A stretch of DNA of 10,637 nucleotides, taken from contig CAYYNC010000107.1 in the NCBI GenBank assembly GCA_964472745.1, forward strand, positions 1-10,637, read 5' to 3'. The position numbers and the translations under genes were made by a program. The DNA is from an uncultured Solibacteraceae bacterium. Lineage in GTDB: Bacteria; Acidobacteriota; Terriglobia; Bryobacterales; Bryobacteraceae. This document shows positions 5,663 to 10,637 of this stretch, piece by piece (the stretch's first letter is position 1; the number at the start of each line of letters is the position of its first letter). The notes under the pieces were generated by a model. It saw nothing but the letters and a program-made list of their open reading frames with translations, was not told the DNA's origin and made no database searches.

Positions 5663-6115
5663 TCAACCTGACGTTCGCGCTTGGGGCTCCTTGGCGCGGA
5701 AAGGGTCCGCGATGCTCACATCGCGAACCTTCCGGCCGTGTTGCAGGTCTTCGCTGAGCAGCCTGTCGCAGCCGCCCCGGATTGCGGCGCTGACGATCGG
5801 TGCATCCCACCACGACAAGGAATCGTGGCGGTGAAGCTCCAGCGCGGTATCGAGCAGTTCGCGGCTGGATTGGACACGCCAAAGACGTTCGATCAGCTTT
5901 CGGTAGATCGAAGTTGCTTCCTCCGCGCTGAGCGGGACCGCCGCTTTGCGCAACACGACGTTGAACCATTCCTGCACCACTCCATCGCTCAGACATCCAT
6001 CGCCCGTTTCGTGGGCCGTCGCAATCCACTTCTGTGCCGCGGATTATCTCCCAGGGTCGGTTGGATCAATCGCGTACACCAGTAGGTTGGTGTCGAGGAA
6101 GAACCTGCCGCTCAT
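5663..6115 (-). pseudogene. vapC: VapC PIN-domain toxin with in-frame TAA nonsense codon at codon 24
   Basis: N-terminus is MSGRFFLDTNLLVYAIDPTDPGR, followed by TAA (complement of 6044-6046). The same frame continues SAAQKWIATAHETGDGCLSDGVVQEWFNVVLRKAAVPLSAEEA...LSWWDAPIVSAAIRGGCDRLLSEDLQHGRKVRDVSIADPF. The family is recognisable throughout. Reinitiation at the internal GTG would lose the first catalytic Asp. Confidence 0.75.
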
Positions 6116-6326
6116 TGCGCTCCTCGCGTGTGAAACGGCGCCCGGCTCGGAACTGGCCGGCGGCCTCCGCTGCGCGCCGGACGTCTTCGGGCGGCAAACG
6201 CGGTCGCTCCGCGTATCGGGCGAGCCATTCCCGAAAGACATTATTGAGGCTCGTGTTCTCGGCTTCCGCCCTCCGGCGCGCGCCCTCGATGAGCGCTTCG
6301 TCAGCACTAAGAGTGATGTTCTTCAC
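6066..6326 (-). CDS. vapB: VapB-like ribbon-helix-helix antitoxin (GTG start), C-terminally extended into vapC
   Basis: VKNITLSADEALIEGARRRAEAENTSLNNVFREWLARYAERP...GRRFTREERNER matches antitoxins of this class, which usually end near ...NER. Here the frame continues 13 aa further (QVLPRHQPTGVRD) and overlaps the vapC start by about 50 nt. A lost stop (CAG where TAG is expected) would explain this. Confidence 0.6.
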   Translation of the reverse strand: MKNITLSADEALIEGARRRAEAENTSLNNVFREWLARYAERPRLPPEDVRRAAEAAGQFRAGRRFTREERNERQVLPRHQPTGVRD

Positions 6327-6422
6327 GCATGTAGGGTGCGCGAGTCGTGCACACAGAAGTGGACCCCGTGTTCTGGACAGCCCCGTTCGGTGGATCTGCG
6401 GCATGGAAAATGGACAGAAGCA

Positions 6423-6706
6423 ATGCCGAAAACCCGCAAGACTCACCAGCCGAGCCTGAAGGCGAAGGCCGCCGTGGTGGCGATCCGCGGCGTTGGGACA
6501 ACCGCGGAGATCGCGAAAATCTTTGACGTGCATCCCAATCTGGTCGCCAACTGGAAGCGCAGGCGCCGGAGCGGCTGCCGGCGATCTTGGCCGGCGCTCA
6601 GGCTGCGCGCCAGCATTCCGGCCCCGAGAAGGACGCCCTCTACCAGCAGATCGGGAGGCTGAAAGTGGAGCTCGACTGTCTCAAAAGAGTCGGCTGGCAG
6701 GATTAA
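6423..6706 (+). pseudogene. IS3-family transposase OrfA, internally frameshifted
   Basis: The N-terminus MPKTRKTHQPSLKAKAAVVAIRGVGTTAEIAKIFDVHPNLVANWKRR (HTH) is in frame 0. The leucine-zipper part ...ERLPAILAGAQAARQHSGPEKDALYQQIGRLKVELDCLKRVGWQD* is in frame 2 and ends with TAA at 6704-6706. Frame 0 stops at 6660-6662. Confidence 0.65.
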
Positions 6707-7562
6707 GGACAAACGCCGGTGGGCCGATCCGTTCCATCCCCAGCTCAGCATCCAGAGCCAGTGCCGGTTGCCGGGGCTGTCCCGCTCCAGCTACTACTCC
6801 CAGCCACGGGCGGAAAGCGGGGAAACGCTGGCGCTGCCGCGCCGGCTGGACGAACTCTACATGGAACGGCCGTTCTTCGGCAGCCGCCGCACGGCGGCGA
6901 TGCTCGGCGTGAACCGCAAGCCGATGCAGCGGCTGATGCGCCTGGCCGGCATCGAGGCGCTGTGGTGGAAGCCGCGGCTCAGCCGGCCGCGGCCCTGTCG
7001 CGAGATCCGTCCTTGCTTGCTGCGCGATGTGGCGATCGAGCGGCCCAACCAGGTCTGGGCGCGCGACATCACCTCTGTGCCGATGCGCCGGGGCTTTCTC
7101 TACCTGGAGGCGGTGATGGACCGGTTCAGCCGCTACGTGCTGAGTTGGGAGTTGTCGGCGACCCTGGACACCGGCTTCTGCCTGGGGGCATTGGCAGCCG
7201 CCCTGCGCCAGGGCGCGCCGGAGAGTTTCAACACCGGCCAGGGCTGGCAATTCACTGCGGCCGATTTCACCGGCGCCGTGCAGCAGCGCCAGATCCGGAT
7301 CAGTATGGACGGCCGCGGCCGCTGGCTGGACAATGTTTTCGAGCGCTTGTGGCGCTCGGTGAAGTAGGAGCTGATCGAGCCGGGGGACTTCGCCGACGGG
7401 CATGAGCTGTGGATGGCGCTGGAGAATTGTTTCCGGTTCTACAGCCACAGCCGGCGGCACCAGGCGCTCGGCTGCCGGAGGCCGGCCGAGGTGTTCGCTT
7501 CGCGCGGCATGCAGCCGGTGGTTGCCCGAAATTGGGGCTCCGCCCCAAACCCCGGGATGTAG
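6663..7562 (+). pseudogene. IS3-family transposase OrfB (integrase core), with in-frame TAG and a mutated DDE motif
   Basis: SKESAGRIKDKRRWADPFHPQLSIQSQCRLPGLSRSSYY...FGSRRTAAMLGVNRKPMQRLMRLAGIEAL...VWARDITSVPMRRGFLYLEAVMDRFSRYVLSWEL...FNTGQGWQFTAADF...LDNVFERLWRSVK*ELIEPGDFADGHELWMALENCFRFYSHSRRHQALGCRRPAEVF. TAG at 7366-7368 replaces the conserved Tyr of the KYE motif. The HSDqG motif reads NTGQG, so the second catalytic Asp is lost. OrfB is in the same frame as the OrfA N-terminus. Confidence 0.7.
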
Positions 7563-7761: not shown

Positions 7762-8448
7762 TTGGGGTCCCCCTCACCTTCTCTCGCCCCGCGCCTCAAA
7801 GCGACATTCCGTTTTTGCGCTCAGCCCGGCGATGACGTCAACAATCCCGTCCTCGATGAGTTGGTCGCCCGGCTCGTCAAGCTCAGTCGTCCGGCTGGCC
7901 AAGCGCCTTACATCTCGCTCTGGCGCCCTGAGCGCTGGACAGAAGAGATGATGCGCGACGCCGGCGGCTGCGGGGCCGCCATCGGGCGGCAGGCCGCATC
8001 CGGCAACCCCATCGTAATCGGCGGCCGCGCTCCCGTTTGGGCCTACCTGTCCGCCCTCCGCTGTGCGCTCCGCAAAGACCGCGCCGCGCGCGTGTTCTTC
8101 TTCGACCCGCGCCAGCCGCAGGTGCTCGTCGAGATTCCCTGCTCGCCGCAGCCGGGAGAATTCCCTCCCAATGTACTGGCTCTGTGTTGGGACAGGCTGC
8201 CGGACGGCATGCATCGCCTCACCTTCAACCACACCGCCACCGGCAAGTACCTGCCCCCCGCCGTGGCCCAGAAGCTCGCCGCCGCGCCGTGGGCGCTCCC
8301 GGTTCAAGTCCCCCAGGCTGTCGGCCTCAGCGGTCCCTCGCCTTTGTGGCTGTTCGGCGTTTACGCCCGCTGGCTACACAACGCCGGGGTGAAGCGGATC
8401 TCCTCATGGGACATGACAATGAAGAAGTTCGTGCCCGTCTGGACCTGA
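7762..8448 (+). CDS. Tandem double Csx3-like protein (two Csx3/Crn3-like repeats in one chain); start uncertain (TTG at 7762)
   Basis: Repeat 1 is GNPIVIGGRAPVWAYLSALRCALRKDRAARVFFFDPRQPQVLVEI. Repeat 2 is GLSGPSPLWLFGVYARWLHNAGVKRISSWDMTMKKFVPVW. Both match the Csx3 core remembered from AfCsx3 (vISGRGPIWLhcfLAHky.ht.fVAVYDPRLGavVV) and the downstream standalone csx3. This rests on recalled family knowledge, not a database search. Confidence 0.5.
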   Translation: MGSPSPSLAPRLKATFRFCAQPGDDVNNPVLDELVARLVKLSRPAGQAPYISLWRPERWTEEMMRDAGGCGAAIGRQAASGNPIVIGGRAPVWAYLSALRCALRKDRAARVFFFDPRQPQVLVEIPCSPQPGEFPPNVLALCWDRLPDGMHRLTFNHTATGKYLPPAVAQKLAAAPWALPVQVPQAVGLSGPSPLWLFGVYARWLHNAGVKRISSWDMTMKKFVPVWT

Positions 8449-8480: not shown

Positions 8481-8792
8481 ATGCTCCAGCACTTCCACGT
8501 CACCATCCTCGATCAAGCCGGCGGGGTGATCACCCTCCAGATCGGCTTCGGCGATCCGGCCGCCAACACCCTCCTCGTCCCCGCAGCCGTCGCCGCCCTC
8601 GGCGCCCTGAACCTCAAAGGCGGCCGCGGCATCCGCTTCACCGGCCCGGCGAGTCTCCCGGTCGCCATGGCGCTCGCCCACGCCGTCGCCCACCTGTACG
8701 GCTATGTCGCCTGTTACGATCCCAAGCTCGAAGGCTTCGTCGTCGCCATCTCCCACGATCCTGCGGTCCGCCCCGGCCAGTTGCTCAGATAG
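8481..8792 (+). CDS. csx3: Csx3/Crn3-like CRISPR ancillary protein (candidate cA4 ring nuclease), ~103 aa
   Basis: MLQHFHVTILDQAGGVITLQIGFGDP...NLKGGRGIRFTGPASLPVAMALAHAVAHLYGYVACYDPKLEGFVVAISHD aligns along the full length of a ~100-aa Csx3, with the conserved His and the YDP.LG Asp. The ATG at 8481 is preceded by AAAGG. An alternative ATG at 8406 would overlap the upstream gene. Stop is TAG at 8790-8792. Confidence 0.5.
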   Translation: MLQHFHVTILDQAGGVITLQIGFGDPAANTLLVPAAVAALGALNLKGGRGIRFTGPASLPVAMALAHAVAHLYGYVACYDPKLEGFVVAISHDPAVRPGQLLR

Positions 8793-8798
8793 GCCGCC

Positions 8799-9815
8799 TC
8801 AATCCAGCACCAGCACCCGGACCTTCCCCAGCCCGAAGGTCGCCTTCTGCCCGAAATGCAGCACCTCGGCCGCCCGCGCGAACGGCATCCCCGGGTCGAG
8901 CTCCCCTGCCAGATCGATATAACCCACCACGCCGTCGAATTCCAGCCGTTTCTCCTGCCGGAATGTGTACCTCGGCAGGCGGTAGCGGAAAAGCCGGCGC
9001 CCTGCCAGTTCGTAGTTCAGCTTCGGAGCCTCCACCCAGGGCAGCCTTGGCCGGCCGGTGAGGCAGTTGTAGACTTGCACCGCCCGCGCCAGGCAGTGTT
9101 CAAAAAAGCAGGCCGCCAGATCGCTTGGGTTGAAGGTGATCCCCTGGCCCAGGTTGACCAGCGCCGGTGTCAGGAATGCGATCCGGACCACCCTGGCCCG
9201 CTCCTGTTCGCACGGCAGCCTGGCCAGCCCGGGCTGTTGCGCCGGAATCCGCGGCAGCCGGCTGTCGTATAACGCCCGCCCCGCAGCGTCGCGCGCGCCG
9301 CGCAGCCGGAAGCGCACTCCCCCCAGTTGCAGGCCGTAGCGTGCGATCGCAGCGACGATGCCGGCCAGTGTGATCGACAGCGGGCCGACCAAGCGGAGTC
9401 CCGGCCGCAGCAGCGCCCCTCTCTGCACCCTGAGAAGGTGATCGTTTTCCAGTGTCGGCGTGCGCTCCCCGCGCAGCGAAGGACCGCTGCGATAGGGCGG
9501 GTGCACGGGTCCCCCCATGGCGATCTCCTCCAGCGCCTCCGTCAGCGGCGCCTCCACGATCAAGGGCTTCGGCGCATTGGCCCCGCTCGAGGTTCGCGAC
9601 CGCTCGAAGATCGCAAAGTACTTGCAGGTGTCCGGCCGCTGGCAGGTGTCCCCGCACTGCGCCGCCTCGCACAGCGCCGGCCGCATCAGGCGCCCCACAG
9701 CCCCCCTGAGACTCGAGCCCAGATACGGCGGCAGGTCCCCGGCCTCCGCCGCTTCCAGCTCGATCCATGCTTCCCGGTAGGTGATCTCTTCCAAAAACTG
9801 CGTCATCTGCGCCAT
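8799..9815 (-). CDS. cas6: Cas6-family CRISPR endoribonuclease with an inserted four-Cys (zinc-finger-like) cluster
   Basis: The N-terminus ...DLPPYLGSSLRGAVGRLM matches the Cas6 LP.nYgs.LhGallsll motif. The C-terminal glycine-rich loop HFGQKATFGLGKVRVLVLD matches GhGxxxxxGhG. Inserted between is CEAAQCGDTCQRPDTCKYF. It lies adjacent to cas2. Stop is TGA (complement of 8799-8801). Confidence 0.6.
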   Translation of the reverse strand: MAQMTQFLEEITYREAWIELEAAEAGDLPPYLGSSLRGAVGRLMRPALCEAAQCGDTCQRPDTCKYFAIFERSRTSSGANAPKPLIVEAPLTEALEEIAMGGPVHPPYRSGPSLRGERTPTLENDHLLRVQRGALLRPGLRLVGPLSITLAGIVAAIARYGLQLGGVRFRLRGARDAAGRALYDSRLPRIPAQQPGLARLPCEQERARVVRIAFLTPALVNLGQGITFNPSDLAACFFEHCLARAVQVYNCLTGRPRLPWVEAPKLNYELAGRRLFRYRLPRYTFRQEKRLEFDGVVGYIDLAGELDPGMPFARAAEVLHFGQKATFGLGKVRVLVLD

Positions 9816-9828
9816 GATATCCCTTGCG

Positions 9829-10092
9829 ATGCATTTTGTAATCGCCTACGACATCGAAAGCGACCGCCGCCGCAACAAGGTGATGTCCACGTTGAAGGAC
9901 TTCGGCCTTCGTGTGCAGTTCAGCGTCTTCGAGTGTGAGCTCGACGCTGCCCGCCTGTGGAAGCTCCGCGCGCGCCTGGAGCGCCTTATCGACCGCCGTT
10001 GCGACCGGCTCCATATCTACCCTCTTTGCGATGCCTGCTATTTCCGGGCCGAGAATCTCGGTCACGAGTCCGGCGATCTGGAGGGCGTGTGA
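9829..10092 (+). CDS. cas2: CRISPR-associated endoribonuclease Cas2
   Basis: MHFVIAYDIESDRRRNKVMSTLKDFGLRVQFSVFECELDAARLWKLRARLERLIDRRCDRLHIYPLC matches the Cas2 signature (YD.....RR.kv.k.l..yG.RvQ.SVFEC.l......l...l...i....D.vriY.l). ATG at 9829 (alternative 9814). Stop is TGA at 10090-10092. Confidence 0.8.
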   Translation: MHFVIAYDIESDRRRNKVMSTLKDFGLRVQFSVFECELDAARLWKLRARLERLIDRRCDRLHIYPLCDACYFRAENLGHESGDLEGV

Positions 10093-10148
10093 ATCCTGCC
10101 CGGTTCTCGTCCTGCTCCCAGACCCTCGGCCGGCCGTTTCGGTCCTTT

Positions 10149-10528
10149 CCGGTTTGCGAAACTTGGGGCCTTGCGCTCATTCGGCGCAACTCAAACATTT
10201 TCCAGCCCCTTACGCGGCCGATGGCAGGATCGTCCCAAAGCCTCGTTTTTACGCAAACCGCCCTCCATGGCCGTTCTTTCCGAGGTTTGCGAAGATGGGC
10301 GCGATTCGCGCTGCAACCGGGCCAATGGAATCAAGGGTTTGGGACCTGGCCGGAGGCCCGGATTTCGCAAACCTCCCCATGACGAAGAATCGCGATCCGG
10401 TTTGCGAAGCGCTATCTGATGGACAAGTGGTTGATTTCGTGGAACTTGACTATGCTAACCCTCGTTCAACCGGCGGTTTCGACGCGGCTGAACCGGCCGG
10501 TTTGCGAAACTCGTGGCCCTTGGCGCAA
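10149..10528. repeat. Dispersed CCGGTTTGCGAAAC-type repeats in both orientations in the noncoding region downstream of cas2 (candidate leader or regulatory boxes); not a regular CRISPR array
   Basis: Forward copies are at 10149 (ccggtttgcgaaac), 10284 (gaggtttgcgaaga), 10397 (ccggtttgcgaagc), 10497 (ccggtttgcgaaac) and a partial at 10474 (cggtttcgacgcg). Reverse-complement copies are at 10359 (ggatttcgcaaacc) and 10245 (gtttttacgcaaaccg). The copies at 10149-10178 and 10497-10528 share about 30 nt (CCGGTTTGCGAAACTtGgGGCCcTTGgCGC). Spacings are irregular (135, 75, 38, 77, 23). Confidence 0.55.
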
Positions 10529-10637
10529 GCCGGGGGCGATCAACAACTTAGCAATTCCGGCACAGGGCGCTTGCGGAGCTAAGCCATTGATGGCACAATT
10601 GAATCACCCGGCCGGGTCGCAAAGGTGCGATTGATAC

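Follow-up and report, generated by a model that had tools for sequence, protein, structure and literature searches.

The window that we analysed, 10,637 nt of an uncultured Solibacteraceae bacterium (contig CAYYNC010000107.1), closes with a cas2 gene, 508 nt of intergenic DNA and one repeat of a CRISPR array. The intergenic DNA is almost certainly a CRISPR leader that carries a selectively conserved set of motifs acting at the DNA level, chief among them six copies of the 10-nt box GGTTTGCGAA. That this motif set serves the integration of new spacers is, in our estimate, about an even chance. The array is best explained as type III-associated and as belonging to a family of adaptation modules made up of Cas6, Cas2 and a fusion of reverse transcriptase with Cas1 (RT-Cas1). 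Outside types I-E, I-F and II-A, little is known, as far as we are aware, of how Cas1-Cas2 integrases locate the leader end of arrays; the same holds for the integrases fused to reverse transcriptase in type III systems, which are able to record RNA.

Allowing up to one mismatch, the core GGTTTGCGAA was found at six sites between cas2 and the array (boxes F1, R1, F2, R2, F3 and F4; Table 1), against 0.75 copies expected window-wide, and none of 200 shuffles reached six. Exact copies of the extended 14-mer CCGGTTTGCGAAAC stand at 10149 and 10497, and a copy with one mismatch at 10397. The boxes form a single forward copy (F1), two inverted pairs (R1/F2 and R2/F3) and a second single forward copy (F4), with spacings of 99/34/80/35/100 nt from F1 to F4. 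An earlier note, made from the letters of the window, had counted six or seven irregularly spaced copies in both orientations; six of them hold, while the seventh candidate (CCGGCCGGGTCGCAAA, 10608-10623) sits within the first CRISPR repeat. The same note had pointed out two near-identical direct copies of about 30 nt, and these were recovered as 31-nt segments at 10149-10179 and 10497-10527 that are 81% identical and 348 nt apart. A GGC(C/G)GTTTCG motif also precedes both F1 and F4 (10130-10141 and 10470-10481, respectively). F1 and F4 thereby resemble copies of a longer unit, a likeness that is lineage-specific and missing from the family consensus.

The region had previously been described as non-coding DNA standing in the place of a CRISPR array. 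This description was corrected by longer contigs of the same locus (L001 and L002), which were obtained via the exact Cas2 protein, present on 8 public contigs. In L001 (20,164 nt; window coordinates equal L001 coordinates minus 72), repeat 1 is followed by three full repeats with spacers of 35-36 nt and by a truncated fifth repeat, broken after 19 nt by an IS3-type element (L001 10963-12700 region). The final letter of the window is also that of repeat 1, a usual breaking point of assemblies. With repeat 1 filling the terminal 37 nt of the window and the array running on in L001 and L002, the DNA between cas2 and repeat 1 is its leader. Extension of the contig, which the earlier note had proposed as a check, thus shows that an array does follow; the boxes are not its degenerate terminal repeats. 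The description as non-coding was borne out: the open reading frames overlapping the leader have no Pfam match, and homologous leaders differ by insertions and deletions of 10-11 nt, which are not multiples of three. The GC content of the region behind cas2 (0.59-0.62) is slightly below that of the neighbouring genes (0.65-0.72).

Homologous loci were collected through a Cas2 homologue search, followed by retrieval of the contigs of eight homologues, and the boxes were used at no step. In the loci with an array, the outgroup L015 (see below) aside, Cas2 is 64-77% identical to that of the window, and for every array the 450 nt ahead of repeat 1 hold boxes in the succession F, R, F, R, F, F (two arrays each in L004 and L005, one each in L007 and L014, and three, on both strands, in L010). 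Where one locus contains several arrays, each owns a copy of the leader. Outside the leader comparison stood L012 and L013 (Cas2 69% identical), in which RT-Cas1 is followed by a gene resembling those of insertion sequences (IS) and then by the contig end. An alignment of ten leaders, from the window and nine other arrays, revealed conservation limited to islands in otherwise diverged sequence. They comprise the six boxes, which extend to (C)GGTTTGCGAA(A/G); AATCAAT-N3-TTG, located between F2 and R2; GGCGGTTTCGACGC, a block ~20 nt ahead of F4; and TTGAAA-N17-TGnCACAAT. With 25 leaders aligned, mean pairwise identity was 48% and the boxes were at least 80% conserved. The repeats change between TCGCA..TGCGA and TCGCG..CGCGA while the boxes stay constant. 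Boxes were found neither in the flanks of the homologous loci nor in the remaining ~19.6 kb of L001, cas-gene promoters included.

The geometry of the boxes is conserved as well. Chaining boxes with up to two mismatches each within generous spacing windows yielded about 36 distinct six-box leaders, whose spacings proved much tighter than the windows permitted: 93-99 bp for F1-R1, 34-36 bp for R1-F2, 34-36 bp with one case at 38 for R2-F3, and 97-102 bp, mostly 99-100, for F3-F4. The F2-R2 spacing falls into three classes of 67-70 (n = 12), 76-80 (n = 19) and 89 bp (n = 5), with nothing between. A Rayleigh test on this spacing peaked at a period of 10.5 bp (R = 0.91), its p-value being indicative only as the leaders are related. 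Length steps of whole helical turns are expected of proteins bound to fixed faces of double-stranded DNA and not of RNA. The fixed spacing and the F2-R2 steps of one helical turn therefore argue for a role at the DNA level. In its general form, the earlier proposal that the boxes are sites of a DNA-binding protein is thus sustained by conserved sequence, fixed spacing, helical-turn indels and a lack of compensatory changes (see below).

When 185,579 species genomes were scanned for two forward boxes spaced like F2 and F3, true leaders came from Acidobacteriota, candidate division WOR-3 and Dehalococcoidia loci only; many other matches were spurious, being either tandem repeats of 37-38 nt, in Paenibacillus and Bacillus, or two boxes together by chance. 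Four metagenome-assembled genomes (MAGs) of Acidobacteriota (Bryobacterales, Bryobacteraceae and Ca. Angelobacter) carry box leaders with Cas6/Cas2/RT-Cas1. About nine arrays in WOR-3 MAGs are preceded by a reverse box, 103 nt, an R-N24-F pair and a further ~81-91 nt before an array of 30-nt repeats, and this leader adjoins a complete type I-B operon (Cas8b, Cas7, Cas5, Cas3, Cas4, Cas1, Cas2). In a Dehalococcoidia MAG, cas2-cas4-csa1 is followed by a reverse box, 98 nt, an R-N24-F pair and a single repeat-like sequence.

Metagenomes were scanned for the inverted pair TTCGCAAACC-N22-27-GGTTTGCGAA, which gave at least 120 loci; as exact boxes were demanded, this set speaks to CRISPR association, and box conservation in it is there by construction. 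Among the 120 matches listed, the pair TTCGCAAACC-N24-GGTTTGCGAA stands beside arrays and/or cas1, cas2, cas4 or RT-cas1 in at least 81 loci, comprising 40 with an array within 350 nt and cas genes within 2.5 kb, 29 with an array only, and 12 with cas genes only and the contig ending. Of the others listed, 21 lie too near a contig end to judge, nine belong to an apparently unrelated extended-palindrome element, and nine are internal without a CRISPR feature. The neighbouring genes in the listed matches were the Cas6/Cas2/RT-Cas1 module, other pairs of RT-Cas1 and Cas2, or a Cas1-Cas2-Cas4 module, and in nearly all arrays the repeats measured 37 nt and the spacers 35-40 nt. A single pair, placed exactly 54-55 bp from repeat 1, characterises the Cas1-Cas2-Cas4 class, while the intervening sequence and the repeats differ. 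The box and its inverted-pair unit thus recur in leaders that belong to several types of adaptation module and to at least three phyla, and the motif goes with arrays and adaptation genes rather than with host lineage. The spacer N within the pair was compared with repeat and spacer lengths as a possible ruler; N is 23-26 throughout, a variation too small to show any tracking, in a set in which almost all repeats are 37 nt (30 nt in WOR-3) and spacers ~35-40 nt.

A different, AT-rich element from metagenome samples Ga0224501/506/511 (L157 1058-1503, L204, L115, L142, L215 and others) embeds the box pair in a perfect palindrome of far greater length (...gcgctctTTCGCAAACCcgcttttaattt|aaattaaagccgGGTTTGCGAAagaggcgc...); conserved flanks are common to several of its copies, and no CRISPR array is nearby. 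On two contigs classified as viral in IMG/VR (L098, 152 kb, and L099, 70 kb), the inverted pair lies ~58 nt from two-repeat mini-arrays.

Besides the boxes, the leaders contain motifs resembling binding sites of integration host factor (IHF). In 11 of 36 leaders, the exact E. coli IHF consensus is found between F2 and R2, in syntenic position (0.1 expected from shuffled sequence), and in 13 of 36 an AA-N4-TTGAT core stands next to the repeat (0.3 expected); the core of a weaker reverse motif between F3 and F4 is present in 5 of 36. The enrichment of these motifs is suggestive, not universal. The best-conserved non-box island of the leader family is TTGAAA-N17-TGnCACAAT, 1-2 nt ahead of the repeat, which we read as a putative sigma-70-type promoter with an extended -10 element. 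A promoter scan called TTGAAA-17-CACAAT with the TG in L010, and did not call the window version with its weaker -35. A sigma-54 reading of the TGGCAC before the repeat was rejected, since the GC of the -12 element is missing and the G of TGGCAC varies (TGCCAC, TGACAC), whereas TGn plus CACAAT fits every leader sequence. Given that this promoter abuts the repeat, transcription would start within repeat 1, downstream of all boxes.

Table 1 Features of the leader and its surroundings (window coordinates unless stated otherwise)
Feature	Position	Strand	Remarks
Cas6-family gene (AF_1859_N + Cas6 domains)	8799..9815	-	divergent from cas2
cas2 (87 aa)	9829..10092	+	Pfam CRISPR_Cas2, E = 1.4e-23; leader starts right behind
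CRISPR leader, 508 nt, non-coding	10093..10600	+	between cas2 and repeat 1
Box F1, GGTTTGCGAA	10151..10160	+	extended form CCGGTTTGCGAAAC at 10149-10162
Box R1, + strand TACGCAAACC	10250..10259	-	1 mismatch; inverted pair with F2, 34 nt start to start
Box F2, GGTTTGCGAA	10284..10293	+	
AATCAA-N4-TTG motif between F2 and R2	10329..10341	+	matches E. coli IHF consensus WATCAANNNNTTR
Box R2, TTCGCAAACC	10364..10373	-	inverted pair with F3, 35 nt start to start
Box F3, GGTTTGCGAA	10399..10408	+	
Reverse IHF-like CAA-N4-TTGATT between F3 and F4	10424..10436	-	weaker; weakly conserved
Conserved block GGCGGTTTCGACGCGG	10472..10487	+	~20 nt upstream of F4; island GGcG.tTt.GACgc
Box F4, GGTTTGCGAA	10499..10508	+	100 nt past F3; 102 nt ahead of repeat start
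Putative array promoter	10571..10599	+	-35 TTGCGG 10571-76, 17-nt spacer, extended -10 TG-g-CACAAT 10591-99
Reverse IHF-like TAA-N4-TTGATG	10580-92		inside promoter
First CRISPR repeat, 37 nt, GAATCACCCGGCCGGGTCGCAAAGGTGCGATTGATAC	10601..10637	+	window stops exactly at repeat end
IS3-type element (L001 coordinates)	orfA 11050-11571; rve orfB 11947-12609		beyond window end

In the reading that we favour, the six GGTTTGCGAA boxes would be sequence-specific docking sites for protein at the DNA level. Together with bends at the IHF-like motifs, they may fold ~450 bp of the leader into a phased nucleoprotein scaffold that would recruit and orient the RT-Cas1-Cas2 integrase, with new spacers entering at the leader-proximal repeat. 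It is tempting to speculate that the two-fold symmetric pairs, whose box centres are ~35 bp or about one spacer length apart, suit a two-fold symmetric integrase. We infer a role in integration rather than in transcription, as well as a box-reading protein and a role of IHF. Integration is favoured because the motif accompanies arrays and adaptation genes, because no regulator gene is conserved in the loci, because in the minimal Cas1-Cas2-Cas4 class the box pair keeps a fixed distance from the site of integration, and because the architecture parallels that of type I-F, type I-D and Sulfolobus leaders.

A bolder version of this reading, which we hold only tentatively and consider somewhat improbable, is that GGTTTGCGAA, and above all the two-fold unit TTCGCAAACC-N24-GGTTTGCGAA, constitutes an undescribed leader-recognition code. 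It would be common to adaptation modules across phyla (RT-Cas1-Cas2 of type III, Cas1-Cas2-Cas4 and some of type I-B) and be read by the integrase or by a travelling factor. Under such a code, the integrase might dock on the pair as a pseudo-substrate about one spacer long, or a leader-binding factor that travels with arrays might read it, and the six-box leader of the Acidobacteriota type would be a multi-site, helically phased landing pad for the integrase. If true, such a landing pad would explain how RT-Cas1 systems find the right array end. The 10-bp box with its fixed geometry, conserved across phyla and subtypes, offers a testable candidate code, and natural variants are at hand in the spacing classes one helical turn apart and in the minimal one-pair leaders at 54-55 bp. 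Should the boxes direct integration, they would define a minimal leader for transplanting RT-Cas1 recording systems and allow better calls of leaders and array orientation from metagenomes. Should they instead be regulator sites, they would point to a widespread, unidentified controller of CRISPR RNA (crRNA) expression.

Leader motifs that guide integration are an established concept. Type I-F leaders contain two IHF sites and two inverted-repeat motifs bound by Cas2 (bioRxiv 10.1101/2023.05.26.542337); in Pseudomonas aeruginosa, the distal and proximal inverted-repeat motifs are held by the Cas2 dimer of Cas1-2/3. As in type I-F, the leaders studied here have short repeated motifs upstream of repeat 1, interspersed with IHF-type sites, their spacing rather than the intervening sequence is conserved, and the motifs are common to arrays that use one adaptation module. 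In contrast to type I-F, the motif in the window is GGTTTGCGAA, with six copies over ~360 bp of a 508-bp leader rather than ~150 bp folded, and two of the elements in the window leader are inverted pairs of 44-45 bp. The context of the box also differs from type I-F, being type III with RT-Cas1 and elsewhere type I-B and Cas1-Cas2-Cas4, and the box is known here from sequence alone. An IHF-like site between the integration site and an upstream motif is likewise found in type I-E of E. coli (PMC5224486, as discussed in PMC6607411), where the leader is below 100 bp with a single upstream motif, unlike the several phased motifs reaching 450 bp upstream here.

In type I-D of Synechocystis, distal leader motifs I-III raise acquisition and their removal lowers it (Kieper et al. 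2019; PMC6607411). Similar to our case, that leader is long, with conserved repeat-distal motifs that were found by aligning leaders of related Cas1 systems; its motif sequences are other ones (e.g., TTGGC), and it has neither a repeated box in two orientations nor length classes of one helical turn. In the type I-A system of Sulfolobus islandicus, a stem-loop in the leader is the binding site of Cas1, and a distal motif that of Csa3a (PMC9456107). This inverted-repeat leader DNA is the nearest precedent both for the inverted pairs and for a Csa3 regulator. However, that system is archaeal and has a Csa3a gene, which is lacking from the box loci, and in contrast to the Sulfolobus stem-loop the box arms are without selection for mutual complementarity. 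Papers on RT-Cas1 integrases worked with 49-163 bp of leader and do not discuss motifs. Full-text literature searches for the box sequence returned no CRISPR-related mention; the leader-motif survey of Santiago-Frangos et al. 2021 was outside their scope. We regard the box motif as a variant of this established kind and found no description of it, though a prior one is possible.

Several results weigh against a role of the boxes in integration. No Cas1 or RT-Cas1 gene is present in the 20 kb of the window locus. Two facts make direct reading by Cas1 or Cas2 difficult: the box is identical in WOR-3 despite identities of only 26-34% for Cas1 and Cas2 and despite unrelated repeats, and it is missing from the 215-nt leader of L015, a type I-D-like outgroup with a closer Cas2 (51% identical). 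As box presence does not simply track Cas2 similarity, a conserved non-Cas reader fits as well. A common reader of the boxes and the repeat hairpin was rejected, as boxes and repeats do not covary. Exact IHF-consensus matches occur in about one third of the leaders, and the E. coli consensus may not be that of the hosts. The box conservation of the metagenome set is fixed by its selection. Finally, because the promoter abuts repeat 1, geometry alone does not separate integration from transcription.

The main rival is a cluster of transcription-factor sites, that is, operators or upstream activating sites at which a dimeric regulator would switch the pre-crRNA promoter on or off. We consider this unlikely, if well worth keeping in mind: the boxes do stand upstream of a conserved promoter abutting repeat 1, inverted pairs, like helical phasing, are a usual trait of regulator sites, the fixed 54-55 bp between pair and repeat 1 in the Cas1-Cas2-Cas4 class is a plausible activator position, and leader-binding regulators such as Csa3a are known (PMC9456107). 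On the other hand, no regulator gene (helix-turn-helix, HTH, or CARF-HTH) is conserved in the homologous loci, which share Cas6, Cas2, RT-Cas1 and Csx3 only, and a host-specific factor leaves one 10-bp box in at least three phyla unexplained. Six sites over 360 bp, the nearest ~55 bp upstream of the -35, would also be unusual for a sigma-70 promoter. The more specific earlier suggestion, a cluster of operators for a Csa3/CARF-type cas regulator, is not supported, given the same missing regulator gene and the absence of boxes from any cas-gene promoter in 20 kb.

Less probable still is that the boxes mark the leader for the integrase and are read by a conserved architectural host protein outside the Cas repertoire, IHF-like in role. 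The invariance of the box across very different Cas1, Cas2 and repeats and the box-free leader of L015 with its more similar Cas2 suit such a protein, and host factors are established in leader recognition in types I-E and I-F. Against it, the boxes are essentially confined to CRISPR leaders in all flanking DNA examined, where a general factor should have other sites. Moreover, we know of no conserved bacterial factor with GGTTTGCGAA specificity.

The other two readings are very improbable. One, raised in the earlier note, is a structured RNA in which alternating boxes would form hairpins (F1/R1, F2/R2 or R1/F2, R2/F3) in a leader transcript. Perfect inverted repeats of 10-12 nt are present, and the minimum-free-energy fold pairs F2 with R2; however, the fold of 10140-10520 is ordinary (z = -0.60, 27 of 100 shuffles at least as stable), and an Rfam scan of 9500-10637 at a permissive E-value gave noise only. 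For the four candidate pairings across ~36 leaders, we counted 60 one-sided mismatches and 18 one-sided wobbles, together 78 one-sided changes, against no compensatory ones, so the arms are conserved as sequences and not as partners. Length variation in 10.5-nt steps, a property of double-stranded DNA, and the conserved promoter downstream of all boxes argue in the same direction.

The second, that the boxes are degenerate CRISPR repeats from a decayed array end or a generic genome-wide repeat (repetitive extragenic palindrome or miniature inverted-repeat transposable element), is largely refuted over the DNA covered, although CCGGCCGGTTTGCGAA (10493-10508) weakly resembles the 5' part of the repeat, CCGGCCGGGTCGCAAA, and the apparently unrelated extended-palindrome element of some sediment metagenomes holds an identical box pair. 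The boxes occur in both orientations without a 72-nt period, are much better conserved than the repeats across homologous loci, recur in leaders with unrelated repeats, and are absent from the rest of L001 and from the flanks of homologous loci; among the matches listed, metagenome pairs are mostly beside arrays or cas genes. Of the degenerate, repeat-derived leader considered earlier, the leader therefore remains and the derivation from repeats does not.

Read away from the leader, the repeats terminate in ATTGAAAC/ATTGATAC, and the 3' end of repeat 1 is the 8-nt-tag-like ATTGATAC. Some repeat centres (L010 11020-11056, L004 and L135; GATTCGCGAAGG) closely resemble the variant box GGTTCGCGAAGG of L014 and L005, and the window repeat centre GGGTCGCAAAGG agrees at 9 of 12 positions with GGTTTGCGAAGG, the box and its GG flank. 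In the other leader classes, the repeats bear no such likeness to the boxes. The likeness could be due to chance or be a hint of one protein reading both. In L012 (8269-8440), between cas2 and RT-cas1, an F1-like box GGTCTGCGAAAAA is followed by two 37-nt copies of GTTGACTGGTCTCGATTGACAGCCGCGCCGGGTAACG ~38-39 nt apart; lying within the adaptation operon, this arrangement resembles a mini-array of two repeats, or else a regulatory element akin to a repeat.

The longer contigs differ in their spacers: L001 (10710-10962) carries, on the cas2 side, three spacers that L002 (10710-10745) lacks, and the distal, oldest spacer, the only one of L002, is common to both. L001 and L002 are contigs of one population, and the difference reflects either recent acquisition in trans or deletion between repeats. 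The three extra leader-end spacers fit leader-proximal acquisition, and recombinational deletion between repeats would look alike. A recent acquisition would be in trans, since no cas1 lies nearby.

Within 20 kb, the window locus comprises cas2, cas6 and csx3 with the array, and, judged by the similarity of the cas genes, its source organism is closest to Acidobacteriota MAGs. The module is kept across the homologous loci, with a Cas6 gene (AF_1859_N and Cas6 domains) divergent from cas2; this synteny is repeated in L004, L005, L007, L009 and L010, making Cas6 the steady partner of the cas2/leader module. An RT-Cas1 fusion is usually part of it (L005, L012 and L014; split or broken in L004 and L010), Csx3 often belongs to it too, and type III RAMP genes lie nearby. 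The only HTH-like open reading frame of the window, at 5946-6662 (+), matches HTH_23/HTH_28 weakly and has a fragment of an rve integrase core behind it at 6768-7367 (+); the two probably represent the decayed transposase of an IS rather than a cas regulator. Upstream of cas6 lie two adjacent Csx3-like genes (Pfam Cas_csx3; 7762-8448 and 8481-8792, both +), and Csx3 recurs beside the Cas6/Cas2 module in L010, L012, L102, L110, L160 and L201.

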